Below, in pieces: positions 25,495-55,217 of a DNA stretch of 64,000 nucleotides. Made by a program: the position numbers and the translations under genes. Numbering within the stretch: position 1 is the first letter of the stretch; the number at the start of each line of letters is the position of its first letter. Source of the DNA: a virus; the IMG/VR virus record IMGVR_UViG_3300008469_000001, positions 1-64,000 of that record, one strand, 5' to 3'. The notes below the pieces were generated by a model that made no database searches, was not told the origin of the DNA, and saw nothing but the letters and a program-made list of their open reading frames with translations.

Positions 25495-25503
25495 TTTTTT
25501 CTC

Positions 25504-25725
25504 CTAATTAAATAAATTATTAACTTTTTCTTCTAAACCATCAATTGCAGTTGTTAATGAACTAATTCTTGAATCCACCTCTGAATGTGTATAGTATCTG
25601 TCATTGTGTGAATGATTATTATCTGTAATATTTATATGAGGAGTATTTTTAACAATACCCCAATCTATATCTCCAGCTTCACTAACTATCGACTGTCCTG
25701 AAATTTCTAATTCTAATACTATCAT
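25504..25725 (-). CDS. Short fibre-adaptor-like protein (shared N-terminal module only)
   Basis: IDW..VKNTP...HSHNDRYYT plus coiled coil; AGGAG RBS. Confidence 0.6.
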   Translation of the reverse strand: MIVLELEISGQSIVSEAGDIDWGIVKNTPHINITDNNHSHNDRYYTHSEVDSRISSLTTAIDGLEEKVNNLFN

Positions 25726-25735
25726 ATTTTTACTC

Positions 25736-26722
25736 CTAAAATTCTATTGAACTTGCGCCATTTTTATTTGTAGTTAAATCCGTTGCTGAAGAAACTGCCA
25801 ATGTCAACCATGTCAATTTATAAGCTGCAGTAGATGACTGTCCACCTAGTATCATACCATAATATTCAGTTGTTCCAACATTTGAATTGTTAGCATCCGA
25901 AACCAAAGTATTAAAAGATTGCACAACATCTGTATTATATGTATGTTCAAAATTACCATTGAGTTTTGATAACCAATATCCCTTAAATGAACTTTTATTT
26001 AAACCAATAGTAGTATCAACAGTTGTAAACTCGATAATATCTCTTGAAATACCAGATGAATATTGATATTCTCTTAACATACCTGTCCCATTACCTTTTG
26101 TATATCCAGTAACAATACTTGATAATTGTTGTCTACCAGATGCATTTACAGTTGATGATGGTTTGATAGTCCATGTATCCATCTTTATATCTAATGATGC
26201 CCATTGATTAATTCCATCATTTATAAATCCTTTTGTTTGAATAGCAAAATCAATCATTGAACCTTTAGGTATTATTGGTGCATTTGAAACATTAGTATTA
26301 ACTAATGTGAATTTATCAAATTTTGAAGCAGCTTTAGAACTATTTAAAAAAAACCCAGAATCTTTTGATGTAATCCCTGGGGTATTATTTGGTGAATTAC
26401 TCAATGTAGTTGATATTTGGCTAGTTGTTTCATTTGAAAAATTATAGTTATGTATGTTGTTGCCGGTTGATCCACCACCACCCATCATCAAATCCGTTTT
26501 ATATGCCAATTGTTCTATTTGTTCTTCTAAATCAGAAATTCTATCTTCTTGAGTTTTGAATTTTGAATTAACAATTGATGTTAAATAATATACACTATCA
26601 TGGTTATGACCACTTGCAGAAACTAAAGTTGATGGTGTATTCTTAAATCTAGTCCAATCAATTCTCTTTGAACTATTTAAAAGTTCTTTACCATCTATTT
26701 TTATTTGTGATACTTTTGCCAT
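25736..26722 (-). CDS. Putative tail fibre/receptor-binding protein with beta-propeller-like C-terminus
   Basis: Shared N-module IDW..FKNTP..HNHD; S/T/G-rich repeats with KGF/KGY and GG. Confidence 0.55.
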   Translation of the reverse strand: MAKVSQIKIDGKELLNSSKRIDWTRFKNTPSTLVSASGHNHDSVYYLTSIVNSKFKTQEDRISDLEEQIEQLAYKTDLMMGGGGSTGNNIHNYNFSNETTSQISTTLSNSPNNTPGITSKDSGFFLNSSKAASKFDKFTLVNTNVSNAPIIPKGSMIDFAIQTKGFINDGINQWASLDIKMDTWTIKPSSTVNASGRQQLSSIVTGYTKGNGTGMLREYQYSSGISRDIIEFTTVDTTIGLNKSSFKGYWLSKLNGNFEHTYNTDVVQSFNTLVSDANNSNVGTTEYYGMILGGQSSTAAYKLTWLTLAVSSATDLTTNKNGASSIEF

Positions 26723-26734
26723 TTTATTAATCTC

Positions 26735-27811
26735 CTATGATTCTGCCATACCAGCAGATGATTGAGGTATTGCTAAAGAACCACCTAAAACATTTGAAGC
26801 AGCTTCTGTCGCCCAGACCATTTTTTGTACTTTACCATGTTGAGCACCATCATATCCACCCATCATAAAACCTACTTTTTCAGACCCTAATGCATTAGAC
26901 TCTCCAAATCCTTCTGTAAAACAAACAACATTTGAAACAGAATTATTAATCATATCAATTCTCCAATTATTTGCTGTACCATAATCAATCCAATACCCTC
27001 TATCTTTATCTTTTGATAAGCCTGCTGCGTGTTGTCTTATATTTTGGGTTGTTCCAGATGAAGTACTAACAGTTAAATATTCATATTTTAGTGTAGTTCT
27101 ATCTGCCTGACCAGCTTGTGTTACATAACCAAAATTCTCAGAAGACAGTCCTTGTCTACCCATTCCATGTCCTCCAAGTGATGAAGATTCTAATGAACAA
27201 GTATCAGTCGTTACTGTTAATTTTGACCAACCTGCTCCTTCATTACAAAGATATAATTTAGATTGAGAATATATATTATATAATGTAGATTTTGTATTAT
27301 GATGTGTTATGTTACCAATGTATGATTCAACTTCTGTGAGATAAATAATTTTGTCCACATGCCTCCCAGTTCTAGTGTGTATAGAGGTATCATTTGCAGT
27401 ACTAGTCGATGTATCACCAAAATAATAACCTTTTAACTCAGAACTACCACCAGGGGAATATTGTGATGTTACAGAACCAATTTGTCCAATTTCTGTACCC
27501 GTTTCAGTAACAGTATTAAATCTTTGGACTCTTTGGGCATAAACATATCCACTTTTATATCCACCATTAATAAATCCTTTTGTTTTTAATGGTCTAATAG
27601 TTAGTGATTTCGTCATTATTGCAACTTTATTCATAATATTAGTAAATTCATCTTCTATTGCCGCTTTCGATGTGTATCTATCATCATGGTTGTGTGTACT
27701 TGTATCTACCATTGATGATGGAATTCCATGTATAGCACCATATTCAATTTTACCATCATTTCCAATAATTACTTGTCCATCAGATGATGTTATACCTTTA
27801 AGATTAGCCAT
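26735..27811 (-). CDS. Putative tail fibre/receptor-binding protein with beta-propeller-like C-terminus
   Basis: N-module HNHDDRY; repeats KGFINGGY, KGYYFG, GFMMGGY. Confidence 0.6.
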   Translation of the reverse strand: MANLKGITSSDGQVIIGNDGKIEYGAIHGIPSSMVDTSTHNHDDRYTSKAAIEDEFTNIMNKVAIMTKSLTIRPLKTKGFINGGYKSGYVYAQRVQRFNTVTETGTEIGQIGSVTSQYSPGGSSELKGYYFGDTSTSTANDTSIHTRTGRHVDKIIYLTEVESYIGNITHHNTKSTLYNIYSQSKLYLCNEGAGWSKLTVTTDTCSLESSSLGGHGMGRQGLSSENFGYVTQAGQADRTTLKYEYLTVSTSSGTTQNIRQHAAGLSKDKDRGYWIDYGTANNWRIDMINNSVSNVVCFTEGFGESNALGSEKVGFMMGGYDGAQHGKVQKMVWATEAASNVLGGSLAIPQSSAGMAES

Positions 27812-27827
27812 TTATTTTATTCCTCAT

Positions 27828-28457
27828 TCAAAATATGATAACACACAAACCATTCCAATAATCATTTTTGGATTCGCCTTTTGTTTTCATATCTATTTTT
27901 TCTTTGTATTTCAATTTAATATTTTCCAGACCAAACTCAATACCAACATCAACGGTTTCAAAATTATAATCATCAAATACCAACACAGAGTCTTTAAACA
28001 AACTTTCATACATCACAATAAATGTTACTATATCGTTCAATTGATGTGATCCATCATAAAAGATTATATCAAATTTACAACCATACAATTTTTCAAAAAT
28101 TCCTTTTGAAAATATGTTTCCATCAATTTGTGTTATATTATCAAGACCAGAAATATTATCTAAAAATACCTTCTTTGGTTTATTTATATATTTTTGATAT
28201 TTTTTTTCAATACTTACAACTTCTTGTTCTTCCCAACTATCTATTGTTGTAATGGTTGATGCAGATAAGGCTATTGGGATAGTGCAGGCACCACAGAATG
28301 TCCCTATTTCCAATACATTCATATCACTACACAATACATTTAAAAAGTTTTGTGTTTTTGGGCTTGTCAAACCATGAATATCATAAACCCATTGTCTTAA
28401 TTCAATTTTGTTATTTAAAGCATTTTGAACTCTATCTTGTAAGTTTATCACATTCAT
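27828..28457 (-). CDS. Class I SAM-dependent methyltransferase (Methyltransf_24-like)
   Basis: VLEIGTFCG, TIDSW, DIIFYDGSH, LVFDDY; likely start MNVINL. Confidence 0.85.
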   Translation of the reverse strand: MNVINLQDRVQNALNNKIELRQWVYDIHGLTSPKTQNFLNVLCSDMNVLEIGTFCGACTIPIALSASTITTIDSWEEQEVVSIEKKYQKYINKPKKVFLDNISGLDNITQIDGNIFSKGIFEKLYGCKFDIIFYDGSHQLNDIVTFIVMYESLFKDSVLVFDDYNFETVDVGIEFGLENIKLKYKEKIDMKTKGESKNDYWNGLCVIIF

Positions 28458-37740: not shown

Positions 37741-40578
37741 TTATTTATCCAAATATTTTGTTTTCATTAATTCATCAAGTTCTGGTAAATTTTCAGATAA
37801 CCATTTTGATTCAGCTTCTATACTATCTATAAACAAATGAGTTTTCTTAATATCATTCATAAACATATCAAATTGATAAGCATAATTTATATAATCACCC
37901 ATTGTTTTTGGAAGAACCTTTCTAAACAAATTCATATCATCAAGTCTTTCATCACCATTAATATTCATAAAATATTGATCTAAAAACTTACCCATTACTA
38001 TTTTATCAATATCTAATCCTTTTTTCATATACAACATTCTTTTACTTTCTTCATTCATATCAGGAACATAGTAAATTATGAAATCTCTTTCCTTAACCAT
38101 AATATATTTTATAGATTCAACAAACAATCTCATAAATATCAGTCTGTCATCTAACTCTTGTAAATCATAACCTAAAGCTTTAATTTCTTTCTGTTTTCTT
38201 TCATCATCCAAAATATCAAACCCATTACTTACTAAACCTTTTCCATACAAAATAATATAATCTTTCAGTCCTTGCATATTTGTTTTTTCAGTTAAATAAA
38301 ATAAAACTTTAAGCGAATCTATAATTTTCTTAACTCTATCTTCACTTACTTTATCAGGATCAAATCTCTTATACCATATACCATATTTTATTTCATAATC
38401 AAATTCTTCAGGATTATCAACAACTGAACCTAATATTTTTAAATCGGTTTGATTAATAAAACCATCTTTATTAACATCATATATTGGTTTACCATTATTA
38501 TCAAATGATATTGCTTGAGATAAATCAGGTACATCATTAACTTGTCCAATAGCCATATCAGTTGGACTAACTCCATCTGGTGGACTTATAATATCTATAT
38601 TATCAACAATACCATCTATAACATTTTTTAAACTACCATAATCACTTAACATGGTTTCAAATGAGCCTCTATATCTTTTTTCATAAATATCTTTATTTTT
38701 ATTTTTATTATATGATTCTAATAAACTTATATTTTCTTTTTTTGATAATCTATCAACCTGTTTACCAAGAAGAGTTGAAATAATGTAATTATCAATATTT
38801 AAAAATCTATCATTCAGAAATTCATATCCTGAATACAAGCTACCTAAATCATCTATATCTATAATGTCAAGCAATGAATAAGTTTCATCTCCTAATAATA
38901 AATCAAGATCACTTAATTTTGGTAACTCATCTTCATCAACTAATAGAACACCTATTGGTTTGAATTTTGGTGAATTGCTATCAGAAACCATAATAGCCAA
39001 TGGTACACCAACATTTATTTCAATAGGAATATCTATACTGTCATCTAGATTCTTTTTTATATTTGGATAACTATTTTTATCAGTAGTTAAGTTTAAAGTT
39101 ATATTTGATATACTTGAAAATACTCTTAATGTTGTTTGTATTTTATCTCCCACATATTCACTAAATGAATCAAGATATGTTATATTAGAACCATCATCAG
39201 ATACACTTTTATTATTAATAATTTTGAATTCTTCTGGAAACGATTCAAATGGTATCTTGTTCAAACTAAAAGTATAAACCCTTAATTTTTTATTAACAAA
39301 CTTAGATTTAATAAGTTTATCTTTATTCAGTTTTATATTTTCAACTGCAGCTAAATATGATTTCAATCTATCCAATTTATCATCAATATCAATTCTAGTC
39401 GAACCAAACATATTAAGTTTATCAGAATTACTAAAGTTTATATCAGTTTTATTAAACCCAACACTAACAACATTATGATCTAAAAGTGTCATATAAGTAT
39501 TTAAAGTATCAGTATCATCACTAAGAATTTTTTCATAAATTTTTAGATTATCTCTTTGATTATGTTTTTTAAGTGAATCTATTAACAACTCATTAGTATA
39601 TAAGAAATCAATATCTGCCATATCATCAATCAATAATTCCATCATCTGTAAACCCAATACTCTTTCTTTCCCTTTATATTCGATATTTAAAGGAGTAGTG
39701 TCAATAATTTTTGAGTCTCTAATTCTGGAATTTTCTACTAATAGATTATAAAGGTCAAGTTTTTCTCCATATTCATTAATCAATGGAGATTTTCTTATAA
39801 ATTCATCAATAGAGTTAAGTTTCTCTTCTGTTGGTAATCTTTCTGGTGGTAGGGTATTATAATCTACAATTTCATGTCCAACTGAGAAATCAGTATCATC
39901 TAAATTAGCAGGGGTATCAACACCTTTATAGTCTTTATCCAGCATTTGAAACTCAAATGACATATTTGTTGACCAAATTCTTGGTTGTGTTAATAACCAA
40001 CCATTAAGATTAAATGACATAGTTATCATAGCAGAATATTTCTGTGATTCTGGTTCTGTATCAATTTCAATACTGTCTAAGAAGACTTCACTAGTTGAAA
40101 CAGGACACTTTGGTAATGGTTCTATGGTTACTTGTTGAGGTGAATTGAAATATGGTATTATTTGTTCTGATATTTCAAATGCCTGATAATCAGATGAAGC
40201 CCAACATATTAACTCCATAGTAAATCTTATTGGTGATGGTCTCATAGCCACATAACCAGTACTATATCCTAATGGTCTTAAATCAACGGTAATAGTATCT
40301 AATGGAGCTCTTCTTTTTTCAGGATTTCTTTCTAAAGCTGTCATCCTAAAAGAGAACATTGGTACACTAATATCTTTAATTCTGTTTCTATTTTTTGTTT
40401 CCTCATTATCAACATTCATTTCTAAATGCGAAATAATATCTGATGGTGAGCCATAGTGTATAGGTACACTTTCTAAAATACCTCTTCTATTTTTGTAAGG
40501 AATTTCAGAAAATAAGCTTGCGAAACCAACTAAGTAATTTTTTATTTGTCTACCATCAAAGTAAAAATTATGATTCAT
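37741..40578 (-). CDS. Tail terminator/sheath stabiliser (T4 gp15-like) with ~700 aa C-terminal extension
   Basis: FYFDGRQIKNYLVGFASLFS.I, VPIHYG, P.FSF, EQIIPYFN in the N-terminal ~200 aa. Confidence 0.75.
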   Translation of the reverse strand: MNHNFYFDGRQIKNYLVGFASLFSEIPYKNRRGILESVPIHYGSPSDIISHLEMNVDNEETKNRNRIKDISVPMFSFRMTALERNPEKRRAPLDTITVDLRPLGYSTGYVAMRPSPIRFTMELICWASSDYQAFEISEQIIPYFNSPQQVTIEPLPKCPVSTSEVFLDSIEIDTEPESQKYSAMITMSFNLNGWLLTQPRIWSTNMSFEFQMLDKDYKGVDTPANLDDTDFSVGHEIVDYNTLPPERLPTEEKLNSIDEFIRKSPLINEYGEKLDLYNLLVENSRIRDSKIIDTTPLNIEYKGKERVLGLQMMELLIDDMADIDFLYTNELLIDSLKKHNQRDNLKIYEKILSDDTDTLNTYMTLLDHNVVSVGFNKTDINFSNSDKLNMFGSTRIDIDDKLDRLKSYLAAVENIKLNKDKLIKSKFVNKKLRVYTFSLNKIPFESFPEEFKIINNKSVSDDGSNITYLDSFSEYVGDKIQTTLRVFSSISNITLNLTTDKNSYPNIKKNLDDSIDIPIEINVGVPLAIMVSDSNSPKFKPIGVLLVDEDELPKLSDLDLLLGDETYSLLDIIDIDDLGSLYSGYEFLNDRFLNIDNYIISTLLGKQVDRLSKKENISLLESYNKNKNKDIYEKRYRGSFETMLSDYGSLKNVIDGIVDNIDIISPPDGVSPTDMAIGQVNDVPDLSQAISFDNNGKPIYDVNKDGFINQTDLKILGSVVDNPEEFDYEIKYGIWYKRFDPDKVSEDRVKKIIDSLKVLFYLTEKTNMQGLKDYIILYGKGLVSNGFDILDDERKQKEIKALGYDLQELDDRLIFMRLFVESIKYIMVKERDFIIYYVPDMNEESKRMLYMKKGLDIDKIVMGKFLDQYFMNINGDERLDDMNLFRKVLPKTMGDYINYAYQFDMFMNDIKKTHLFIDSIEAESKWLSENLPELDELMKTKYLDK

Positions 40579-42905: not shown

Positions 42906-43187
42906 TTATTCAAATAGGCTTTTACCTTCTGACATCACTTTACAACCAAGCTCATCTCTAGCCTCTTTCATAAAAGTTTCACCAGTTTTAGGATTTCTAA
43001 CTTTTCTGGCATTTTTATGTTTTTTGAATACTTTGAATAGTGAACCAAATTTTACTTCACCACCCTCTTTTACTTCATCAATGATTACTTCTAAGAAACC
43101 ATTCCAAATTCTTTCACATTCAGCTTTTGAAACTTTTTCTTCACCAATTATTTCTTGTAGTTGAACTACTATATCTGCTTTTGTCAT
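42906..43187 (-). CDS. HU/IHF-like DNA-binding protein
   Basis: MTKADIV..., G.EVKFG, ARKVRNPKTGE. Confidence 0.9.
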   Translation of the reverse strand: MTKADIVVQLQEIIGEEKVSKAECERIWNGFLEVIIDEVKEGGEVKFGSLFKVFKKHKNARKVRNPKTGETFMKEARDELGCKVMSEGKSLFE

Positions 43188-43323: not shown

Positions 43324-43965
43324 TTAGTTATTTTTTAAAAAATCAATCAAAAGTACATATGCATATCCTATAGAATGCGGTTTTTTATATCTATATTTAC
43401 CATCATCTCTACCCAATTCCTTAAATTGTTCATCAAAAACTGGTATACCATAAGTTTCTCTTAGAATTTTTTGAGCTTCTTCTGATTTCTTTTTCAATAG
43501 TTTATCAGTATGAATATAATTTTTCATCTTATCATAATTAGCTACGGAACCAGGTCTAATCAACGCTAAAATAATAGCAATGTCATTTACAGATGAAACT
43601 TTAAACTCTCTAAGAATACCAGGATACTTACTCAATTGATATGGTTCATCATATTCCCACAATGTTGACCATTGGATATTTTCATTTTCTATCAGGTGTA
43701 TATATTGTATTAATTCATCTGAGGATATATCATCCAAATAACTATTATTAAGAATATCAATCTTTTGAAAATGATTTTTTTCCATTGATTTATAATCTAT
43801 AACAGCTAAATCTTGATAAGCTGGAATTGATTTATAAAAATAAACGCCAGCTGGATGAGGTTGATAATCTCCTCTATCATTCAAAACAGAAGCCCTTAAC
43901 AAACCATTTCTAATTTCATCTGAGTCCTTTGCAGGTATATCCAAATCTAAATCTGAAAATTTCAT
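43324..43965 (-). CDS. DnaE-like catalytic (palm/fingers) fragment
   Basis: SDLDLD (PDIDID), HPAGV, KIDIL, LALIRPG, YGIPVFDEQ, YKKPHSIGYA (FNKSHA.AYA). Confidence 0.8.
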   Translation of the reverse strand: MKFSDLDLDIPAKDSDEIRNGLLRASVLNDRGDYQPHPAGVYFYKSIPAYQDLAVIDYKSMEKNHFQKIDILNNSYLDDISSDELIQYIHLIENENIQWSTLWEYDEPYQLSKYPGILREFKVSSVNDIAIILALIRPGSVANYDKMKNYIHTDKLLKKKSEEAQKILRETYGIPVFDEQFKELGRDDGKYRYKKPHSIGYAYVLLIDFLKNN

Positions 43966-44012: not shown

Positions 44013-45860
44013 TCAATCTAAGTCCGGATTCACATCTAAAGTTGAAATCCCCCTAGATTTTGTAACTAAAATAACTTCTTTTGATTTTTCTTTTATCTCT
44101 TCTCTGTGAGAAATCATATATACTCTCATCTTTTCTTGTTTTGCAACATTTTTGATAAAGTAATATACAGATTCTAATAATGTACCATTGATACCACTAT
44201 CCAAAACTTCATCCATAAACAGTGCATTAAATTCAACATTATTTTTTAGTTTAAACACTTTCATAAGTGCCAACATAATCATAATATTACCAATCCTTTT
44301 TTCACCATTTGAAAGAGTACCTGATGATACCTCTTTACCAAGCTTCATAATTCTTATTGTGAAATCTGGATTGAATTGTAAATGAATGTTAAAATCAGGA
44401 ATCAATTTTTTAAAGTTTTTGAGTATTTCATTTGATTGTTTGATAAATTTTCTTAGAAATTTTCCTCTTATTTTTTGATCATCATTCTGTTTTATAAATG
44501 ATTTAAACAACCTAACATTCTCTGAAACCCTATCAATCTCAGTCATATCTATGTTTCTAATTAACTTTGAATTAGCTTCTATTTCTGATAAGAAATGGTT
44601 GTCTTGACCTTCAATATTTGTTAATTCATTTTCTAGATTTTTAACAACAATATCAATATTATCAAGTTCTTTCTTATCAACTTTTGTTTCAACTTCTTCC
44701 ATTGCTTCTTTTATTTCAGATAATAATTCTCTTTTATCAGAAATGGAATGTTTAAGTTGTTTTTTACCTTTATCATGATCGGTAATACTTTTTTCATATA
44801 TAAGAATTTGTTTTCCATAATCAGATAATTTTTTATCACTTTCTGTTATAGCTGTTGCATCTTCCCAATCTTGATTACAAGTAGGACAAATATTACCCTT
44901 TAAACTAACATTCTTCTTTTCTTCTCTTTCATATTTCTCAGATAGAATTTCTATTTCTCTATCTTCTTTATCAATAATGGATTGTACATCTTTTAAATCA
45001 CTTCTTAATTCAGTAATTGTTTCTGTCAATTTCAATTTATGTTCTTTCAACTCATCTAAAAATGAAAATTTATCAAGTTCTTCTGCAACATTAACTGTGG
45101 TGTAATATTCAATAGATTCAACTAAACTATCGATTTGTTTTTTTCTTCTTCTCTCAAATTTTTCTGACGATTCATTTAATCTTTCTAACTGGTGGGTTAT
45201 TTGTTCATTTGCATAATTAATTTCTTTTATACTTGATTCTAATTCTGTTAATTTTATTGTATCATCTCTTACTCTATCTTTAACATCTGTAGCCATTTGA
45301 TTAGCAGCTTCAAAACTAAATATGTTTTCAAGAACTTTCTTTTGATCACCCGGTCTCATATTCAAAAATGGTTTATTATGCTCACTTGCAACTGAGAATA
45401 AAGTAGTTTGTAGGAAGGTTTCATATTTCATTCCAACAATAGATTCAATAAGATTATTGTTATCTCTTATGTCTGCTTTTGAGATATTGTCCCAAGTATC
45501 TTCTACATTTTCAACTGTTTCAACTTTTTTATAAAGATTAAGAATGTTTGGTTTTCTTCCTCTTTCAACTTTAAAACTGTGTTTATCAATATCAAATTCT
45601 AAAGTAACTACACAGTCTTTTCCTTTTATATAATTAACAACCTCATTAGCTTTAACATTTGATACAGTTTCACCATATAGTGCAAAAGTTATACCAGCAA
45701 ATATAGTTGATTTACCTGTTCCAATTTTAGCACCTTCAGTATCTTTATCAATTCCATCAATAAGTATTACTGTAGAACCAAACTCATTAAATTTCAGTTC
45801 TTGTTTACTTCCATAACTATAAAAGTTTTGCAATTCTAATTTTCTAAATTTAACTTTCAT
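44013..45860 (-). CDS. Recombination nuclease ATPase subunit (gp46/SbcC/Rad50)
   Basis: NFYSYG, GTGKST, zinc hook CPTC, LSNGE, LFMDEVLD, ISH. Confidence 0.95.
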   Translation of the reverse strand: MKVKFRKLELQNFYSYGSKQELKFNEFGSTVILIDGIDKDTEGAKIGTGKSTIFAGITFALYGETVSNVKANEVVNYIKGKDCVVTLEFDIDKHSFKVERGRKPNILNLYKKVETVENVEDTWDNISKADIRDNNNLIESIVGMKYETFLQTTLFSVASEHNKPFLNMRPGDQKKVLENIFSFEAANQMATDVKDRVRDDTIKLTELESSIKEINYANEQITHQLERLNESSEKFERRRKKQIDSLVESIEYYTTVNVAEELDKFSFLDELKEHKLKLTETITELRSDLKDVQSIIDKEDREIEILSEKYEREEKKNVSLKGNICPTCNQDWEDATAITESDKKLSDYGKQILIYEKSITDHDKGKKQLKHSISDKRELLSEIKEAMEEVETKVDKKELDNIDIVVKNLENELTNIEGQDNHFLSEIEANSKLIRNIDMTEIDRVSENVRLFKSFIKQNDDQKIRGKFLRKFIKQSNEILKNFKKLIPDFNIHLQFNPDFTIRIMKLGKEVSSGTLSNGEKRIGNIMIMLALMKVFKLKNNVEFNALFMDEVLDSGINGTLLESVYYFIKNVAKQEKMRVYMISHREEIKEKSKEVILVTKSRGISTLDVNPDLD

Positions 45861-45959
45861 TTAAACTCTCTTTTTACCTTTCAAAAATGTCTTTTCAACA
45901 CCTTTTACATAATTATACATTAATCAACTTTTTTACCCTTATTAATAAAGGATTAAAAT

Positions 45960-47018
45960 CTACTCTTGGTAAGAGTTAGATAATTCCTTTAAAAATTTTA
46001 TTGCTTCTTGGTCTTCATCAACTTTTTCGGTTGTTACTAAATTATCAATAACATAATCTGTATATGATTGATTTTCTAATTTATTAGATGTTTCTTCATC
46101 ATCTTCATCATCAAGATCATCTAAATCATCCCAAGGTGACATTTGATCATCAAGAACTAAATCATTTATTCCATATTCTAAAATCAATGATGTTTTAAAT
46201 TCTTCCAATTCACTATATTTGTATTTCTTATCAATAACTAATTTAAGATTATCTCCTTGATTAAATACTGTAGTTAATTCATCTTCCATCTCTTTCAATA
46301 CTGACATTTTGAATTTATACATTCTAGGGTGTTGGTACTCAATAAATTCATCTTCACCATTTTCACAATCTAATATAGTCCATCCTCTCTCATCATCATC
46401 TTCACCATAAAAAAATCTACACAAATTTCCAATATATGCTATTTTACCTCTTGATTGTCTTTTATGAAAATGTCCCATAAACACTTTATCATAATTTTTT
46501 GTAATTGCATTTGCATTAAGACCTTCTTCAGCTTTAACAAATTGGTTTAGCATAAAACCTTGTATTTCAATGTGACCCATTAAAAAGTTTGCATGTGGGA
46601 ATTCATGTCCTTTCATTATTTCATTTGGAAAATAAGGTAACATATAAAATGTATTATCATGAATTTCTAGTGTTTTAGGTTCATCTACCAAATGAATATT
46701 TGGATAACCAGCAAATATATGTAGGTTATGTCCATTTGAATCATATGTTTTTTTTGACATGTCATGATTACCAACCAATATATATACATTATCAAATGTA
46801 TCATTAATTTTAATAAATGCTTGTGCTAGATAATTTAAGGTTGAAGTGGATATTGATTGTTTTACATCAAGTGTATCACCTAAATTGATCATTGTAGTTA
46901 TACCATTTTGTTTCGCATGTTCACATTGTTCATAAATACCTTTAAGTATAATATGGTCAAATTTACCATTTGATTTACCAAAGTGCCAATCGGTACTAAT
47001 TGTAATTTTCTTATTCAT
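45960..47018 (-). CDS. Recombination nuclease subunit (gp47/SbcD/Mre11)
   Basis: TDWHFG, LGD, GNHD, MGH, GHFH. Confidence 0.95.
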   Translation of the reverse strand: MNKKITISTDWHFGKSNGKFDHIILKGIYEQCEHAKQNGITTMINLGDTLDVKQSISTSTLNYLAQAFIKINDTFDNVYILVGNHDMSKKTYDSNGHNLHIFAGYPNIHLVDEPKTLEIHDNTFYMLPYFPNEIMKGHEFPHANFLMGHIEIQGFMLNQFVKAEEGLNANAITKNYDKVFMGHFHKRQSRGKIAYIGNLCRFFYGEDDDERGWTILDCENGEDEFIEYQHPRMYKFKMSVLKEMEDELTTVFNQGDNLKLVIDKKYKYSELEEFKTSLILEYGINDLVLDDQMSPWDDLDDLDDEDDEETSNKLENQSYTDYVIDNLVTTEKVDEDQEAIKFLKELSNSYQE

Positions 47019-47346
47019 TCATAATTGCCTTTCATCAAGAATATATATTGATATATATTATACAAAATTTAATCAGTAATAATTTCATAGAAAATCATAT
47101 ACAATTTGACATTAATATAATGGTGTAATTTTATCATAAATTCTTGTGTGAAAATCAAACATAATTATGACCTAAATTATAAGTGTATTTCAAATCAATT
47201 TTTTTAAAAAATAAATTCAATGGCTATGCCAGAGGACGAAGTCCAAGGTACGAAGTACTATATCTATCTTTATATCATATTTAGGCACTTATAGCGGACA
47301 ATTCACTAGGCAATAATAAGGGGGTTTATAGCGACACCCCAAAAAA

Positions 47347-47954
47347 ATCGTGTAAGCTTTGTGGAATTGTCGTGTAAACTTTGTGAAAGCATTTTTTCAC
47401 CTTATTATTAAGGTCTTAAAATGCGAAAAAAAAGGCATGTTTTAACTCAAAAAATTTTTCTGATGTTTTTAGGGTACTAAATAACTCAAAATTTGAAGTT
47501 GATTAATTTTAAGTTTTTTTTAAGGTGATGTTTTAACTCAAAATTTGAACTTGATGAATTTTCTAAAAACAGTAGTGTATATAGTAGTTCGAGCAGTCTT
47601 ATCGTGTAAGTCTTGTGGAGTTAAATCGTGATTGTAACCAAAAGTTTCTCTATTTGTAAATAACTCAAAATTTGAACTTGATGAATTTTCAAAAATAACT
47701 CAAAATTTGAACTTGATGTATGAGGGTTTTTTAACTCAAAAATAAAAGTTGAGTTATTTAGACCTATTTTTCTTATAAATAACTTAGAAATTAAAAAATC
47801 GTGTAAGTCTTGTGGAGTTTAAAATTTATTTAGTAAAGTCTTAAAACACCTTATTAATAAGGTATTAAATAAAATCACCATTTGATAAATGTTAAAAAAT
47901 CGTGTAAGTCTTGTGGAGTTTAAAATCGTGATTGTATAATAGGGTATACACGAT
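47347..47954 (+). repeat. Repeat family A, 22 bp ATCGTGTAAGTCTTGTGGAGTT (iteron candidate)
   Basis: Exact copies at 47601, 47798, 47899; variants at 47347 and 47369 (22 bp apart); partial copies at 47625 and 47925, and inverted at 47947-47954. Confidence 0.85.
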
Positions 47955-48004
47955 AATTTGATAAGATTTCCAATGTAAATAACTCAACTTTTATTTTTGA
48001 GTTA
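47443..48004 (+). repeat. Repeat family B, TAACTCAAAATTTGAACTTGATG, plus a 29 bp inverted pair
   Basis: Exact copies at 47534, 47661, 47696; variants at 47443 and 47482; 47732-47760 is the exact reverse complement of 47976-48004. Confidence 0.85.
47932..47940 (+). promoter_or_regulatory. Probable rep promoter -10 (TTGTATAAT) overlapping family A partial repeats
   Basis: Same motif as before other replication genes; flanked by ATCGTG half-sites. Confidence 0.55.
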
Positions 48005-48056
48005 TTTTCTAAATCTATAGAATTATAAAAAAAACTTATAAAAAAGGTATTAAAAA

Positions 48057-49388
48057 ATGACAGTAAAAACAACAAAAAAATCACTCCAAAAATCGGCTGG
48101 TTTGAACCTAGAATTGAAGAAACCATCTCAACTTTGTCAAGTACTATTTTATAAAGATTTCAACAAGGAAGAATATGCAAATCTTACACCATTACAAATT
48201 GATATTATCAATGTAACCTTTAGATTTGTTTCTGATATTATGGAAAAACAAGACTTAACTAGAGAAGAATTATTTGAATGGGCTAACTTAAATCACTTTG
48301 AAATAAATTTACAATCGATTTCTGATGTTCTTGGTAGATATAAGAATGGATATTATGAACCAATAGTACATAATTTACAGGAATTAACTAAAATTCAGGT
48401 TTTAACAAATACTCTACACAAGAATAAAACACAAGAATCAATTTTATTTCACTTTATTAGAAAGATAAGTTGGTTAAAAGACAAACAAACAACCAGTAAA
48501 AGAGTTAAAGTTTGGATTGAACCAGAACTTTTATCAATGTTTTTAAATCTCAAAGACTATTACAGTAAAATGTATTTACCTATTCAATTAGGTCTTAAGT
48601 CCAAATATTCTAAACTATTATATGAAATTCTTAAAGATTATTCTAAATTAAAAGAGATAACTTTAGATTTTGATATGTTGAAAGCATTACTTAATGTTGA
48701 TGTAAAAGAGAAACCTAGTTTAGATGCTTGGTCTAATTTTAATAGAGATGTATTAAAAAAAGCTGTTAAAGAAGTTTCTGAAAAATCAGATATTAAAATT
48801 GAGTATACTCCAATAAAAGAAAAATTAGATAAAAAAAGTGAAGTAACTAAAATTAAATTTACTATGAGGAAACAAAGATCTATATTAATTGATGAAGATG
48901 ATATTGATGAAATGTCATTAGATACACATATTGTTTCTGATGATGATGTTAGAACAAAAGAGTTATCAGCTGAAGATATTAAATATATTGAATTAGCACA
49001 ACAAAGGTTAGATGATGCTAAAGTATTTGGAACTCAGATAAAAAATGAACAAGCTTATTTAGAAACCATAATTGAAAATCTTAAAAAAGAGAAAAAAGAT
49101 ATTCCAAATATGCTTCTTATAGATGATATTATCTTAGAATTAAGAGAAGCTTTTGAAGAATTTAAAAATAATAATAACCAACTTATTGTTTTAGAAAATA
49201 TTGATTCGTATCCAGTTGTTTCTATTAGTAGTGAGTATTTACTATATTCACCAGTAGATAAATCTAATATTACGAAAAGTGTTGAAGAAACAATAAATAA
49301 GATAAATAAATTCAAAACAGAAGATGGGAAATTTAATATTATTGAGACTCCAGCAAAAATAAAGGAGCTTGATATTTCTTATCTTTAA
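48057..49388 (+). CDS. Plasmid-type replication initiator (Rep_3/RepB family)
   Basis: LKSKYSKLLYEILKDY, FDMLKALLNV, NFNRDVLKKAVKEVSEKSDIKI, VTKIKF: tandem winged-helix initiator pattern. Confidence 0.9.
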   Translation: MTVKTTKKSLQKSAGLNLELKKPSQLCQVLFYKDFNKEEYANLTPLQIDIINVTFRFVSDIMEKQDLTREELFEWANLNHFEINLQSISDVLGRYKNGYYEPIVHNLQELTKIQVLTNTLHKNKTQESILFHFIRKISWLKDKQTTSKRVKVWIEPELLSMFLNLKDYYSKMYLPIQLGLKSKYSKLLYEILKDYSKLKEITLDFDMLKALLNVDVKEKPSLDAWSNFNRDVLKKAVKEVSEKSDIKIEYTPIKEKLDKKSEVTKIKFTMRKQRSILIDEDDIDEMSLDTHIVSDDDVRTKELSAEDIKYIELAQQRLDDAKVFGTQIKNEQAYLETIIENLKKEKKDIPNMLLIDDIILELREAFEEFKNNNNQLIVLENIDSYPVVSISSEYLLYSPVDKSNITKSVEETINKINKFKTEDGKFNIIETPAKIKELDISYL

Positions 49389-49409: not shown

Positions 49410-50381
49410 ATGGGAAACAATATGAATGAAACGCAGATTGTAACTGATATAGAACAGAATACAATCTTGAATATAGACCCAAGTATTATTAGTGAAAACA
49501 AAATGGCTATTAATCTATTTGGTGAAGATTTATCTGAGATGGCACCAGCTATTAATGAAAATTTCATTAGATTGATACAAAATTTTTATGGTGAATCTTC
49601 ACCGCTTAATCCATTAATTGGTCAACAATGGTTAAATAAAGAAGATAATATTTTGTATAGATGGATTGGTAACAATTGGGTTCAAACAGAAAGAGATAAC
49701 ACATTTGATTCATTTATGTTTGTTATGTATAACATTGGTGATACTAGTGAATTTGTTTTAGATGAATTTGTATTTAACTTTACTATTGAAAATATCAAAT
49801 TATATAATCAAGATATGAATGATGTTAAATTTGTTATTGACCCATTTGATTCTAGAAAGATAATTTTAAAAGAATCAAATATAACTACATTATATATAAT
49901 GGTATTTCATCCAGAAGATAGAATTACAAATCCTTTTAAAAACAGAAAAGTTGAAATTTTTACAGAATCCGGACAAACCCAATTCGATATTGAATCATTT
50001 TTATTAGGTTCAGATATTAATACTCTGAGTGTTTCATTAAATGATGTAATGTTAAAAAATAATGAATTTACTGTAACTAATAATATATTAAGTATAAATG
50101 GTATGATTTATAGAGTTAGGGAAAATGATAAATTAACAATTTGGAAACATGGTGGAAGTTTGTCTTCATATTATTCAACATTTACTACAACTGTTAATTC
50201 TAGAGAAAGTTATGTTAGAATACCAAAGTTTTTCAAAAATATTATGACTATGGAAATTTTAGATTTAGATACAAATACTATTATTAATCCTATTGAAGTT
50301 AATGAATTTGATGACTATTATCACTTTGAGTTTTTAGATAAGAAAAATATTAAGATTAATTCTAAAATAAGAATTATATAA
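49410..50381 (+). CDS. Virion structural protein (baseplate/fibre-associated)
   Basis: INENFIRLIQNF....P.NP.IGQQW motif; GQTQF..V.LND module. Confidence 0.6.
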   Translation: MGNNMNETQIVTDIEQNTILNIDPSIISENKMAINLFGEDLSEMAPAINENFIRLIQNFYGESSPLNPLIGQQWLNKEDNILYRWIGNNWVQTERDNTFDSFMFVMYNIGDTSEFVLDEFVFNFTIENIKLYNQDMNDVKFVIDPFDSRKIILKESNITTLYIMVFHPEDRITNPFKNRKVEIFTESGQTQFDIESFLLGSDINTLSVSLNDVMLKNNEFTVTNNILSINGMIYRVRENDKLTIWKHGGSLSSYYSTFTTTVNSRESYVRIPKFFKNIMTMEILDLDTNTIINPIEVNEFDDYYHFEFLDKKNIKINSKIRII

Positions 50382-50392
50382 GGAGAGTTAAA

Positions 50393-50788
50393 ATGGTATA
50401 TCCTTTTGTAGCTAATAAAGTTGAACAATTAGAATTAGACCCAATAAAAAAAGTAGATGGGTATATATGGTATAATACAGTTGAAAAAGTTTATAAAACA
50501 TGGGTTGGAAATACAATTCAAATTTTCATTACAGACTTTAGTTTTGGTCAAAATGTTGATGAGATGGTGCAGGATAAACTTGATACTAAACAATTTACTG
50601 TTGGATTTGATTCTGTATATAGTTTGATTATAAAACATAATAAAAATTCACATTTCTTTAATTACACTATTTTTGACACTATTGATAATGTTCAAATAAA
50701 TTCATCAGTAGAAATTATTAATGATAATGAAGTTAAAGTTGACTTTACAGATCCAGTAACTGGTCATATTTTTATGTATTTCCAATAA
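50393..50788 (+). CDS. Small virion/fibre-associated protein
   Basis: GYIWYNT and IIKHN...V.F..PVTG modules. Confidence 0.55.
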   Translation: MVYPFVANKVEQLELDPIKKVDGYIWYNTVEKVYKTWVGNTIQIFITDFSFGQNVDEMVQDKLDTKQFTVGFDSVYSLIIKHNKNSHFFNYTIFDTIDNVQINSSVEIINDNEVKVDFTDPVTGHIFMYFQ

Positions 50789-50843
50789 TAATAATAAATT
50801 GAATAAATAAATAAAAATATAATCTAGGGGAAAGGATATTAAC

Positions 50844-52448
50844 ATGATTAAAAGTAAATTACATAATCCAATAATTGCAAATAATTCACACATTGAAAAT
50901 GCAGTTGTAGAAAAAGTAAACTTAACAAATGAAAAAGTGTTCTCAGATTTGGGAAATGCAACACCAATCGTACCAGAAACTGGTAGAGTTTGGTTTAATA
51001 CTGAATCAGGAACATTTAAATTTGCTAATATAGGTTTAGGTGGAGATGGTGAAAATTTTGTAGATGAATTTTTATCTAAAACAGATTTAAGACCTCAAAC
51101 AGTTGATTCAAAAGTTGATTTTAAAGATACTGTTAAAGTATTAAATACAGATGGAAGCGAACAATTAGTTATTGATTCTACAAGTAAAATTTTAACTATT
51201 GATAATTCTATCGCTGTGCAAGTAACAAGTGATAATATCACAACAAATGTTATTGGTAAAGTATCGGTGACAGATGGGACAAATGATAAAATTGTTGCAG
51301 ATAATACAGCTAATTCATTTGATTTAAATTATAATACTATAAACACATTAGGTCAGGATGTAAAGTTTACATCATCAAACTCTGTAGTTATAAATGATGG
51401 TGTTTCTGATAAATTTATTATTGATAACAGTAGTGATAGTGTAACATTGAGTTATGCTACTGTAACTGCTAATACTACATCAACAACATTAAATGCAACT
51501 GATACAACTTTTAATGTATCAAATACATTAAAATTAACAGATGGGACAAATGATAAAATAGTTGCAGATAATACTAATAACGCATTAAATGTTACATATG
51601 CTGAAACTACTGTAACAGGTAATGCAACAGTTGATGGTAATATGGTTGTAACTGGTGATTTAACTGTAGGTGGTCAAACTACTAAGGTTGATGTTGCCTC
51701 TGAAAGTATGGTAATCGCAGATAATGTAGTTGTATTGAATAGTAATTTAGATGATACAGTTGATCCTAGGTTAGCATCTGCAATTGTTGATGGTACAGAT
51801 GTAGATCATGATGCAGGTATCGCTATTAATAGAGGTAGTGAAGGTATTTTAGATTTAATTAAATGGTTAGAGTCAACTGATACTACTACAACTGAAACTT
51901 TAAAAGAAGGAACAGCAAATATTTCTATATGGAATTATGAAGCTGCAACACCTGCTTATGAATTACACCAAATCATTGATGAATATACATTAGGTAGACA
52001 AGTTAATGGTTTGTCTGGTTCTGGTTGGGTTGGTTACGATGGTGAGATTGGAACTAATTATGCTAATGCAATTGGTGCAGGAGCAACAGATGGTGAAGCA
52101 TCAGAATATGCATTTAAAATTGATGCCGGAAAGCTAGATGATACAATTGATCAAATTGTTCAAGAAATAGATACTGTTAAATTTGATGGTATGAATTCTG
52201 CAAGAGTTGGTGAAACACCATCTGCTGGAACAGAATTTGTAATAACTCATAACTTAGGTACAGTATTTGTTGATGTCAAAGTTCAAAGAGAGGAAGATAG
52301 TAATTGGTATTATGATGTATTACCGATTCAAATTATTGATGCTAATACAATTAAAATTGTTGCTACTGAAACAACAAAAATAAGATATATGATTTCTGCT
52401 ATTCAAGGGTTTGATGTTAATCAAGCAACCGAATTAACAATTTCTTAA
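50844..52448 (+). CDS. Tail fibre-like structural protein
   Basis: GRVWFNT, TDGTNDKIVADNT repeats, GDLTVGG.TT...DN.V.LNS..AGI.I.RG module, C-terminal ITHNLGT. Confidence 0.65.
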   Translation: MIKSKLHNPIIANNSHIENAVVEKVNLTNEKVFSDLGNATPIVPETGRVWFNTESGTFKFANIGLGGDGENFVDEFLSKTDLRPQTVDSKVDFKDTVKVLNTDGSEQLVIDSTSKILTIDNSIAVQVTSDNITTNVIGKVSVTDGTNDKIVADNTANSFDLNYNTINTLGQDVKFTSSNSVVINDGVSDKFIIDNSSDSVTLSYATVTANTTSTTLNATDTTFNVSNTLKLTDGTNDKIVADNTNNALNVTYAETTVTGNATVDGNMVVTGDLTVGGQTTKVDVASESMVIADNVVVLNSNLDDTVDPRLASAIVDGTDVDHDAGIAINRGSEGILDLIKWLESTDTTTTETLKEGTANISIWNYEAATPAYELHQIIDEYTLGRQVNGLSGSGWVGYDGEIGTNYANAIGAGATDGEASEYAFKIDAGKLDDTIDQIVQEIDTVKFDGMNSARVGETPSAGTEFVITHNLGTVFVDVKVQREEDSNWYYDVLPIQIIDANTIKIVATETTKIRYMISAIQGFDVNQATELTIS

Positions 52449-52473
52449 TAAAATTCCACTAAAAGTATAATTT

Positions 52474-52510
52474 AATACACCCATCAATTCATTGGTTGGT
52501 GTATTTTTAT
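52474..52510 (+). terminator. Intrinsic terminator
   Basis: AATACAC..CAAT/ATTG..GTGTATT stem followed by a T run. Confidence 0.5.
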
Positions 52511-52593
52511 ATTCAAAAAAATTAATATTTATACTAACAAACTTTTTTTCAAAAAAACACTTTTTCAAAAAACACATATTTTTACATTATACT

Positions 52594-52601
52594 TATAAAT
52601 A
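52594..52601 (+). promoter_or_regulatory. Late promoter TATAAATA for the sheath gene
   Basis: Exact T4 late motif 45 bp upstream of ATG 52647. Confidence 0.6.
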
Positions 52602-52646
52602 AAATTGAAAATAAAAAAACAATCTTTAACTATAAGGAGAAATATA

Positions 52647-55217
52647 ATGTTAGTAGGTGTAGAAACAAAACTAATCGACAATTCACCATCATTTGTAGGT
52701 GGTGGTTCGAGCTTTATTCCAACTATTGTAACATTCGCAAGCAAAGGTCCAGTAAACCAACCATATTTATGTGGTTCTGCTAGTGAGGCATTACAAATTT
52801 TTGGTGAAGCAGATTTAAGTAAAAAACAATATGGTATGTTCGCAGCATACGAATTTTTTAAACAAGGTTCAAGTGCTTGGATTGTTAGAGCTGGTGCGGA
52901 TACTCCGGGCTTTGCTGAAACAACAATCAAAGCTAGAGATGGTAAACCATTAATGACAATTAGAAGCAAAAATTCTGGTGAATTTTATAACTCATTTAGA
53001 ATTGTATTCCAAGATATTAACCCTATCAATTTTGATGGTGTTGTAACAATGCAAATCTTAATTGAAATGAAAAATCCATTAACTCCAGATGAGTGGGCAG
53101 AAACTGAAACTACTCCATTCCCAGAGTATATTCCTATTCCAGGAAAAAACAGATTTAATGTTGATTTTGCAACTCAAAGAGTTTATTCAGCAATTGATGA
53201 TGTAGATCAAGTAAACCATTTTGGTGAATATTTATATGATGCAGTATCTGATTCTTGTATTAAACAAGTTAATGAAATTGTTAAAATGAATGAAACTGAA
53301 GATTTTATGTTTATTTTTGAAAGAGAACCTTTCACATCAACTATTGTAATTGAAAAATTAAAAGCACAAGTAAACTTTGCTGGTGGTTCAAATGCTATTG
53401 AAACTGCATGGGCACCAATCTTCAACTTAGCTGGATTTAAAAAATATGATGCTGCTAGAAGAGAATTTAGAGCTGAATCTGATTTATATACTATGGCTAA
53501 AAATGAGTATGTTCAATTACCAGTAAATGTACAAAAATATAACAAAGATAATAACATTTTAGTAATTGGTGGATTAACTACCAATGGTATAAAAAAAGAA
53601 GTTGTTTACCAAGATAAATTAGTTGATTGGGGAACATATAACAATGTAGATACTGTTAAAGGTTCTGTAGCATTTGCAACTGCTGAGCCAGTAGTAAGTA
53701 ATCCAAATGTTGGAGATGATGCAACAGTAACACTAAGAGATAATGATGGTGTTGAAATTGATGTAAGAGTTGGTGATATTAGAGAATTTGTTATGCCATT
53801 AGGTGGAGATGTAAATACACATAATTACTACTTAAATATTGATGAAGATAAATTCTTATTACAAGAGTTGTATAAAAAAGATTGTCCTCAAGTTGATGAT
53901 GGACCTGAATCTTTACCTGCTATTGATGGAACAGGTAGATATTATAATGTTACAGTTCAATTTGCAAATGCAATGGAAAAATTAGCAGAAATCATTGAAA
54001 AAATGAATAACATTAAAAAAGATGTAGCGAACCAAGCATATAGAGTAGATGCATGGTCTCCAGGTGAATGGGGTAATAAATATCAAGTATCTGTTGATTA
54101 TGATCCAGGTGTTGATGAAGTTACTATTCATATATTTGAAGAAAGAGGTGCTGAATTAGTAGAAGTTGAAAATGGTGTTTCTCAATCATTTAAAGCTGAT
54201 CAATTAACATTTAAAAATGCTAAAATTTATATTGGTACACCAGTAGAAGTAGCAGTATCTAATACTTATCCAGTTAATGATGTTGATCCTGATACAGGTG
54301 CTGAACAACCTATGCCATTAATGGGTGGTGCTGATATGTTTACTGATAAAGATTATAATAATGATCAAAAATTAGCTCCTTACATTGCTGGTTCAGTTGC
54401 ACATCAAACTGGTGTATGGGCTGTATTCAACTTTGAAGAATTTGCATATAAAGCATTAGCTTGTCCTTATTTCTCACAATTTGGTATGGTAAGTGGTGAA
54501 ATGGTTTCTATGGCAGAAAACAGAAGAGATTTCCATTGTATTATTGACACACCTGATTTAATTGCTCCAGCAGCAGTTAATTGGAGAACAAGTGGTAATC
54601 ATAATTCTAAATTTGAATCAATTTATTTCCCATGGTTAATGAAATTAGATACTTATACTAAGAAAGTAGTTCCAGTTCCACCAAGTGGTTCAGCATTACA
54701 ATCTATGGCATTAACTCAAAGGAATGGTAAAATCTGTGATGCTCCAGCAGGAACAACAAGAGGTATGATTTTTGATGCTGTTGCAGTATCAAAAGATATT
54801 AAATTATCACAAGTAATGAGAGATAGATTATATGGTATGGGTATCAATCCAATTGTCAAAGGTTTAACTACTGGTATTTGTGTTATGGGTCAAAAGACTA
54901 CATATGCTAAAACATCTCCAATGCAAAAAGTTGGTACAATGATTATGATTGAACAAATTGTAAGAGATTTAACTTTATCTGGTAAAAATTACTTATTTGA
55001 TTTATCTGTTCCAAGTTTATGGAATACAATTCAAGGTGATTTTCAATCATATTTAAATACATATATAGCAAATGAGTGTTTATCTGAAGCTGAAGCGAAT
55101 GTAAGTGCGGAATTTAACCCACCAATCGTATTAGCACAATCTAAGTTAAATGCATTAGTTAGAATTAAACCAAGTCCTTATATGGAACATTTAATAATTC
55201 CGATTTCTTGTGAATAA
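52647..55217 (+). CDS. Contractile tail sheath protein (gp18-like)
   Basis: Likely start MLVGVE (AAGGAG RBS); ASKGPVNQP, FG, WIVRA; C-terminal YFPW, VPPSG, APAG..RG, RD.LY..GINPI, GQKT. Confidence 0.92.
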   Translation: MLVGVETKLIDNSPSFVGGGSSFIPTIVTFASKGPVNQPYLCGSASEALQIFGEADLSKKQYGMFAAYEFFKQGSSAWIVRAGADTPGFAETTIKARDGKPLMTIRSKNSGEFYNSFRIVFQDINPINFDGVVTMQILIEMKNPLTPDEWAETETTPFPEYIPIPGKNRFNVDFATQRVYSAIDDVDQVNHFGEYLYDAVSDSCIKQVNEIVKMNETEDFMFIFEREPFTSTIVIEKLKAQVNFAGGSNAIETAWAPIFNLAGFKKYDAARREFRAESDLYTMAKNEYVQLPVNVQKYNKDNNILVIGGLTTNGIKKEVVYQDKLVDWGTYNNVDTVKGSVAFATAEPVVSNPNVGDDATVTLRDNDGVEIDVRVGDIREFVMPLGGDVNTHNYYLNIDEDKFLLQELYKKDCPQVDDGPESLPAIDGTGRYYNVTVQFANAMEKLAEIIEKMNNIKKDVANQAYRVDAWSPGEWGNKYQVSVDYDPGVDEVTIHIFEERGAELVEVENGVSQSFKADQLTFKNAKIYIGTPVEVAVSNTYPVNDVDPDTGAEQPMPLMGGADMFTDKDYNNDQKLAPYIAGSVAHQTGVWAVFNFEEFAYKALACPYFSQFGMVSGEMVSMAENRRDFHCIIDTPDLIAPAAVNWRTSGNHNSKFESIYFPWLMKLDTYTKKVVPVPPSGSALQSMALTQRNGKICDAPAGTTRGMIFDAVAVSKDIKLSQVMRDRLYGMGINPIVKGLTTGICVMGQKTTYAKTSPMQKVGTMIMIEQIVRDLTLSGKNYLFDLSVPSLWNTIQGDFQSYLNTYIANECLSEAEANVSAEFNPPIVLAQSKLNALVRIKPSPYMEHLIIPISCE

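Follow-up and report, generated by a model that had tools for sequence, protein, structure and literature searches.

Why would a giant T4-like phage carry a replication initiator of the plasmid type, together with its own array of repeats? This question is raised by a locus in the first 64 kb (64,000 nucleotides, here called the window) of IMGVR_UViG_3300008469_000001, an 87,921-bp IMG/VR virus contig from a sediment metagenome (GC content 28%), in which a Rep_3-family initiator gene, here rep, and the repeats preceding it lie between gp47, the gene for a recombination nuclease subunit, and a group of virion genes. An earlier note on this DNA, made from the sequence alone, had proposed two readings, namely that the phage has a plasmid-prophage or carrier state, or that it uses theta initiation before recombination-dependent replication. 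As set out below, the locus is probably an iteron-type origin that belongs to the phage, together with the gene for its initiator, and would serve an early replication phase that depends on this protein.

The assignment of the gene product to the Rep_3 family, as stated in the earlier note, is borne out by profile and structure comparisons. Both parts of the family architecture score above their cut-offs, namely Rep3_N/WH1 (PF01051; 36.8 bits versus a cut-off of 22.4, residues 40–193) and Rep3_C/WH2 (PF21205; 43.4 bits versus 21.1, residues 205–269), and the family profile matches the R6K initiator pi (2nra) with an E-value of 1.7e-8. An AlphaFold model of Rep (pLDDT 74) aligns with pi (2nra) at a Z-score of 15.4 over residues 25–280 (222 residues aligned, root-mean-square deviation 3.9), with the RepE dimer at 12.6, with RctB at 9.0 and with the WH1 domain of pPS10 RepA at 8.2, and Foldseek matches it to RepE54 (E-value 1e-7, TM-score 0.71–0.74 on the target). 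The open reading frame (ORF) is assigned as a bona fide Rep_3 initiator with a predicted two-winged-helix fold of the pi/RepE type. Its conserved C-terminal domain (residues 296–443) has no recognizable fold, as it reaches a pLDDT of 53 when folded alone, gives generic helical matches only (Z about 5) in a wide structure search, and remains at chance level (0.80) in an Atlas search. Homologues of Rep (n = 38) are 50–83% identical, the closest (72–83%) being encoded on contigs of up to 347 kb, and a full-library profile search returned 31 clusters at E ≤ 1e-30 among 4,321 Rep_3-like clusters; by profile similarity, Rep belongs to a small long-form subfamily within the latter. One Rep_3 relative (P0047, 552 amino acids (aa), NCBI source) is fused to a T5orf172 domain (PF10544).

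The gap between gp47 and rep (47019–48056) spans 1,038 bp without an ORF of note, and the approximately 1 kb of dense repeats described there by the earlier note was found as such, with the flanking genes confirmed. The repeats form two main families that are confined to the gap, with no other copy in the 88-kb contig. Family B, with the iteron sequence CGTGTAAGTCTTGTGGA, has a 17-nt core (CGTGTAAGYYTTGTGGA) that is present in five copies of one orientation, against 0.24 expected in 64 kb; the cores are arranged as a pair spaced by 22 bp, one single copy and a pair spaced by 101 bp, spread over 570 bp, and all iteron copies lie upstream of rep, none within it. The consensus, yGTGAww-N-TTTGTGrA, is bipartite, with a GTG in each half and roughly one helical turn between the halves, and is fairly conserved between phages. 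Family A is built on the arm TAACTCAA and includes a 21-nt element in four "hybrid" copies (0.04 expected), which show no hairpin folding (z +0.14) and in which an IHF consensus was sought and not found. Two arms of this family also make up the perfect dyad in the rep leader, which shares only a TTG-G core with the iteron and folds, together with its flanks, as an 11-bp hairpin (z −4.5). This dyad is a candidate operator or attenuator, and the perfect dyads in general are possible hairpins or terminators.

Toward gp47, the gap contains a candidate unwinding element (Table 1), which lies in the top 0.05–0.07% of the 64-kb window for ease of melting, although, in a genome of 28% GC, a number of other promoter regions have similar values. 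The GC content of the locus is 0.25, versus 0.28 overall, and matches that of its neighbors, as had been pointed out before. Between the easily melted DNA and the first iteron lie two mini-hairpins and conserved boxes. The folding energy of the two mini-hairpins is not significant under generic DNA parameters (z −0.2). Comparable GC-rich mini-hairpins, with different stems and mostly C(GNA)G loops, occur at the same place in three of four other lineages. The first conserved box reads TATCTATC(T/C)TTT across lineages, and the mini-hairpins and this box, which is TATCTATCTTT in the window, could together act as a single-strand priming signal.

The genome that contains this locus has PHROGs matches to gp46, gp47, tail sheath, sheath stabilizer, head-tail adaptor, baseplate hub and DNA end protector. 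With T4-type virion and recombination core genes present, the phage is classed, by gene content, as a very distant T4-like myovirus in the broad sense, the identity of its core genes to those of cultured T4-like and other large myophages being only about 23–27%. Related contigs attain 290–306 kb at 85–87% completeness, and CheckV estimates the 87.9-kb contig to be 30% complete; the "jumbo" label used in the earlier note is justified by these two observations.

Relatives of the locus in IMG/VR were found once an alignment served as the query, a scan with the single protein having given nothing. The order gp46, gp47, gap, rep, three genes and tail sheath is also seen in five further assemblies, which come from different samples and projects, namely L002, L003 (290 kb), L004, L029 (156 kb) and L030, which represent four distinct phages since L003 and L004 are near-identical; syntenic rep genes, which the earlier note had left as a prediction to check, are hence present in related phages. 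Identities to these syntenic relatives are 58–61% for Rep, 62–66% for gp46 and 63–71% for gp47, and by pairwise identity all three proteins group the phages in the same way, so that Rep has descended with the phage. By this comparison, the module is not the product of misassembly or of recent insertion, and a chimeric assembly at the junctions, which the earlier note had named as an outcome that would overturn its reading, is contradicted by the synteny.

What is inherited is the layout more than the motifs. In five lineages the order is AT-rich DNA by gp47, mini-hairpin(s), conserved boxes, an A-run, the 22-bp iteron pair, two family A pairs, iterons 90–102 bp apart and then rep, with motifs that differ between the lineages. 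Iteron number and spacing are retained in the four other lineages, the proximal iterons being 101–102 bp apart in L002, L029 and L030, and 90 bp in L003. For family A, the layout is the same in the relatives and the arms are wholly different (TAACTCAA, TAACTAAG, AACCGCA and ATCCCTCAA). In both the window and L002, a TGTATAAT −10 element lies immediately 3' of the last iteron.

Outside these lineages the module changes place. G003 (306 kb) is collinear with the window (gp46 61%, gp47 66% and sheath 80% identical), but the interval from gp47 to its first virion gene is a mere 194 bp, versus the 2.2-kb module here. A first Rep-iteron cassette of G003 lies between homologues of two genes that are adjacent here (79-bp gap at 68038–68115 of the contig described here) and a second at 186 kb. 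In L042, a 37%-identical Rep is found at the gp47-side junction, beside a 58%-identical virion gene. Since G003 is without the module at the junction and has cassettes elsewhere, the module appears to be portable. The absence of insertion scars claimed by the earlier note hence stands in part, as the same junctions are seen in five assemblies, but a collinear relative is without the whole 2.2-kb module at that site. All four contigs of at least 120 kb that were retrieved via the tail sheath, not via Rep, encode at least one Rep_3 protein. Two or three Rep_3 genes each are found in G003 (L005, L010), G004 (L009), L032 and L034, and a distinct iteron array accompanies each member of the G003 Rep pair and the first L009 copy; several Rep_3 genes per contig suggests that there may be genomes with several origins.

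Among 50,697 GenBank phage records, no homologue of Rep or of two paralogues was found at E ≤ 1e-3, two Clostridioides phages appearing at E-values of 0.01–0.03, and a literature search found no publication describing a Rep_3-iteron module in such phages, in agreement with the earlier remark that no well-described example exists in this phage group. Identity to the nearest plasmid Reps in PLSDB does not exceed about 36%, in matches that cover between one third and one half of the protein (E-values 1e-4 to 1e-6).

The locus also shares its promoter motif with other genes of the phage. The motif TTGTATAAT occurs in eight copies in the window versus 4.0 expected, a number reached by 3 of 100 shuffles, and all eight precede an ORF in the correct orientation, so that the motif of rep is common to seven other phage genes, as the earlier note had observed for other replication genes. 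Two of the copies point outward from the gap, one toward gp47 (47057–47065, − strand) and the other toward rep, and the latter is, judged by its sequence, an extended −10 promoter of early type. A generic sigma-70 scan did not rise above shuffles, the T4 late motif TATAAATA was not enriched, an Rfam search of 46900–48200 returned no family, and no tRNAs were found in the window.

Which of the two repeat families would Rep bind? Distant Rep paralogues (33–40% identity) in other jumbo contigs adjoin simple arrays of three to four repeats at 31–32 bp, with an inverted iteron copy at the ATG in L008 and L009, and the repeat of L042, TTGAGATTAGATTGTGGGT, resembles family B. On the strength of these arrays and of this likeness, family B was taken as the set of Rep iterons, an assignment that is rather likely to be correct, which would leave family A as further sites that are bound by Rep dimers or by another factor. 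A DnaA box in the 3' half of the iteron was also considered and dropped, as only six to seven of the nine positions of a relaxed box match.

A working scheme for the proposed phage-owned origin can be put together from these elements. Early in infection, host RNA polymerase would transcribe rep from its TTGTATAAT promoter, and Rep monomers would bind the five direct iterons. Bound Rep, perhaps with the HU-like protein of the phage, would then open the AT-rich DNA next to gp47, so that a replicative helicase could be loaded and bidirectional theta replication begin, followed later by a switch to a recombination-dependent mode via the adjacent gp46/gp47, as in T4. The promoter-abutting iteron and the leader dyad would limit the synthesis of Rep. 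In iteron plasmids, origin opening is aided by HU and IHF. The gene for the HU-like protein lies 4 kb away and its product is 81–86% identical across relatives, and it is a possible accessory factor of the origin. In evolutionary terms, the locus would be a portable origin cassette that is stable at the gp47–virion junction within a sub-clade and occurs at other sites, with other Rep and iteron types, in related jumbo phages. Theta initiation before recombination-dependent replication, as suggested in the earlier note, agrees with a module that is inherited with core genes in this sub-clade, with the presence of at least one cassette in each long relative examined and with the early-type promoter that other phage genes share.

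The locus resembles the iteron theta replicons of plasmids. R6K gamma-ori/pi, mini-F ori2/RepE and the RepA systems of pPS10 and pSC101 have the same WH1-WH2 initiator and direct iterons upstream of rep, including a 22-bp pair, and the AT-rich DNA beyond the iterons, the putative initiator site at the rep promoter and the dyad before the gene may also have counterparts in them. In contrast to these plasmids, the locus described here lies in a T4-like genome of approximately 300 kb in which none of the partition genes searched for was found, and its Rep has an extra conserved C-terminal domain of approximately 150 residues and at most about 36% partial identity to theirs. Furthermore, its iterons are dispersed over 570 bp and do not form one tandem array, a second and fast-evolving dyad family is interleaved with them, and the dyad in the leader does not consist of an inverted iteron.

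Among phages, P1 (oriR/RepA) likewise has an iteron-binding initiator inside a myovirus genome. P1 also has incA, ParAB and Cre-lox, that is partition, dimer resolution, addiction and immunity functions, and a separate lytic replicon (RepL), whereas no searched family from among these extra systems was found in the phage described here. Lambda ori/O offers an analogy for the proposed early origin, as a phage initiator acts there at repeated sites by AT-rich DNA, and early theta replication precedes a later mode; lambda, however, has its iterons within the coding sequence of O, which does not belong to the Rep_3 family, while the sites here are upstream of rep. T4, with oriF and oriG, has the same type of virion and the same gp46/gp47 set, and an early origin phase is expected before recombination-dependent replication. 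T4 has no sequence-specific initiator protein, and its R-loop origins are primed from transcripts, whereas here an initiator with iterons adjoins gp47.

Several observations weigh against a phage-owned early origin. The phage is uncultured and known from assembled contigs alone. Phages of the T4 type are able to replicate with no initiator at all, so the genome might not need the cassette. Of the candidate replisome partners in the relatives, PolB gave weak and short matches only, and DnaB_C was found in one relative only. The choice of the repeat family bound by Rep, with family B preferred, is itself no better than rather likely. Finally, the raw cumulative GC-skew minimum, which sits exactly at the locus both here and in G001, lends no independent support. 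GC skew was rejected as origin evidence because it follows gene orientation, and the same change of strand is seen in G003, where no Rep lies at that place; after correction for orientation, the skew step is reached in 16 and 21 of 200 permutations, which is not significant, and G004 has none.

The mobility of the cassette can also be read differently, namely as that of a selfish or competitive element that spreads among jumbo phages for itself, or for competition between phages through origin specificity and incompatibility, and that is not the main origin. Cassettes at four or more different sites in related genomes would fit this, as would the contrast between the 194 bp in G003 and the 2.2-kb module, the divergent Rep at the same junction in L042, and a dyad family that is wholly different between phages with Reps approximately 60% identical. 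Yet the Reps of the sub-clade have diverged in parallel with gp46 and gp47 and are still intact after approximately 35–45% divergence, every long relative examined has kept at least one cassette, and no nuclease or transposase accompanies the cassette here, so that we consider a selfish cassette unlikely.

A carrier state, in which Rep and its iterons would keep the genome of approximately 300 kb as a low-copy episome in the manner of P1 RepA/oriR, with lytic replication by other means, was the more far-reaching proposal of the earlier note, and it gained no support. ParA (PF13614, PF01656) and ParB (PF02195) were found in none of five records, namely the contig and four relatives of 61–87% completeness, in a search with positive controls that did not include ParM and TubZ. 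Tyrosine and serine recombinases (PF00589, PF00239) and the S24 repressor (PF00717) were likewise found in none of these five incomplete genomes, again with positive controls, so that none of the families searched for among the partition, repressor and resolvase- or integrase-type functions that the earlier note had suggested looking for turned up. A pattern scan of 185,579 species-representative bacterial genomes showed no relative, although the host may not be among those sequenced. Every plasmid Rep in PLSDB is at best distantly related to this lineage, and two or three different or relocated cassettes in related phages ill suit strict copy control. What speaks for an episome is the plasmid-type initiator itself and a set of features known from low-copy-plasmid control (split iteron clusters, a promoter iteron and a leader dyad), along with two precedents, the reported persistence of non-temperate jumbo phages in bacterial isolates (bioRxiv 10.1101/2024.12.31.630880) and the proposal, drawn from RepL genes, that crAssphage lives as a phage-plasmid (bioRxiv 10.1101/2024.03.20.585998). 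Taken together, a carrier replicon is improbable. If anything slightly less probable still is the wider idea that the clade consists of giant T4-like phages able to persist as low-copy episomes via an autoregulated Rep_3-iteron replicon and host replication proteins, with the interchangeable cassettes as incompatibility determinants among co-resident phages.

That Rep no longer initiates replication, and has instead become a DNA-binding protein of Rep_3 origin that regulates the divergent promoters of gp47 and the virion genes or organizes phage DNA, is very unlikely. The repeats do sit between two divergent promoters and winged-helix Reps also repress their own promoters, but the locus retains a complete WH1-WH2 protein together with iteron arrays and adjoining AT-rich DNA, paralogues show classic origin layouts, and 1 kb of sites exceeds the needs of a promoter switch. 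An assembly chimera or a recent plasmid insertion has nothing in its favor except the plasmid-type family name and can be set aside, given the junctions in five other assemblies, the matching GC content, the promoter motif common to phage genes and the remote, partial identity of the nearest plasmid Reps.

If the locus is the phage-owned origin proposed here, it bears on a question for which there is little guidance, as the way in which large phages start replication outside the T4 and lambda models is mostly unknown. A conserved initiator-origin pair in an uncultured T4-like jumbo group would then be available as a clonable object of 2.4 kb, and origin modules would be exchangeable between giant phages, as plasmid replicons are. 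There is also a caution in it, in that a viral contig should not be called a phage-plasmid merely because it encodes a Rep of a plasmid family.

Table 1. Features of the rep locus and its neighborhood (positions in the window).
Feature	Position	Strand	Basis or remark
gp46/SbcC-like recombination nuclease subunit, left neighbor	44013–45860	−	phrog_77, E 3.7e-83
gp47/SbcD-like nuclease subunit, reads away from the origin	45960–47018	−	phrog_100, E 8.9e-59; Metallophos
HU-like DNA-bending protein, 4 kb from the origin	42906–43187	−	PF00216, E 2.3e-16
Segment of the gap that melts most readily, a candidate unwinding element; includes the gp47 promoter	47019–47215	.	Nearest-neighbor melting scan
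Two adjoining C(GAA)G mini-hairpins, GGACGAAGTCC and GTACGAAGTAC	47234–47258	+	Sole two with stem ≥4 on the + strand of the 88-kb contig
Conserved box TATCTATCTTT, then second conserved box and A-run up to the first iteron	47261–47271	+	Best-conserved columns in an alignment of 6 loci
Distal iteron pair, 22 bp start to start	47349–47365 and 47371–47387	+	Same 22-bp pair in L002, L003, L029 and L030
Family A set: hybrid copies at 47482, 47534, 47661 and 47696; lone arm at 47443; perfect dyad 47732–47756	47443–47756	+	
Third iteron, then half-iteron at 47624–47636	47603–47619	+	Motif scan
Proximal iterons, 101 bp apart, the second abutting the rep promoter	47800–47816 and 47901–47917	+	Motif scan
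Half-iteron overlapping the predicted extended −10 promoter TTGTATAAT of rep (47932–47940)	47924–47940	+	L002 arranged alike
Perfect dyad in the rep leader (TAACTCAA, 9 nt, TTGAGTTA)	47980–48004	+	53 nt before the ATG; in the window, L029 and L030, a final dyad lies 57–77 bp before the rep ATG
rep, Rep_3 initiator, 443 aa	48057–49388	+	WH1 ~40–193, WH2 ~205–269, conserved C-terminal domain ~296–443
Right neighbors: three conserved genes (two with weak virion-protein matches), then tail sheath	49410–55217 (sheath 52605–55217)	+	Library matches, synteny

Further replication-related genes were seen in the window. A finger domain of a bacterial Pol III alpha subunit, DnaE (PF17657, E-value 2.4e-11) is found in a 213-aa ORF (43324–43965, − strand) that is 69–73% conserved among relatives, and part of the DnaE NTPase domain (PF07733, E-value 6.9e-6) in a separate 168-aa ORF (19609–20115, − strand), 23 kb off. 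A UvrD/Rep-type superfamily 1 helicase (20914–22734, − strand) has its own TTGTATAAT promoter, and the homologue of its gene in G003 is interrupted by an inserted 325-aa ORF (G003 25265–28074). Among the virion genes, a 945-aa protein (37741–40578, − strand) matches the T4 gp15-type tail sheath stabilizer over its first 195 residues and continues for approximately 750 more. A palindrome, CCTTATTA(A/T)TAAGG, occurs in the window at 47400–47413, 47849–47862 and 45937–45950, and also in G003 at 44.3 kb and 68 kb, in L006 and in L007; as the G003 junction that lacks a Rep has it too, it is taken as a general intergenic element (a terminator or a site for a regulator) that lies outside the origin itself.

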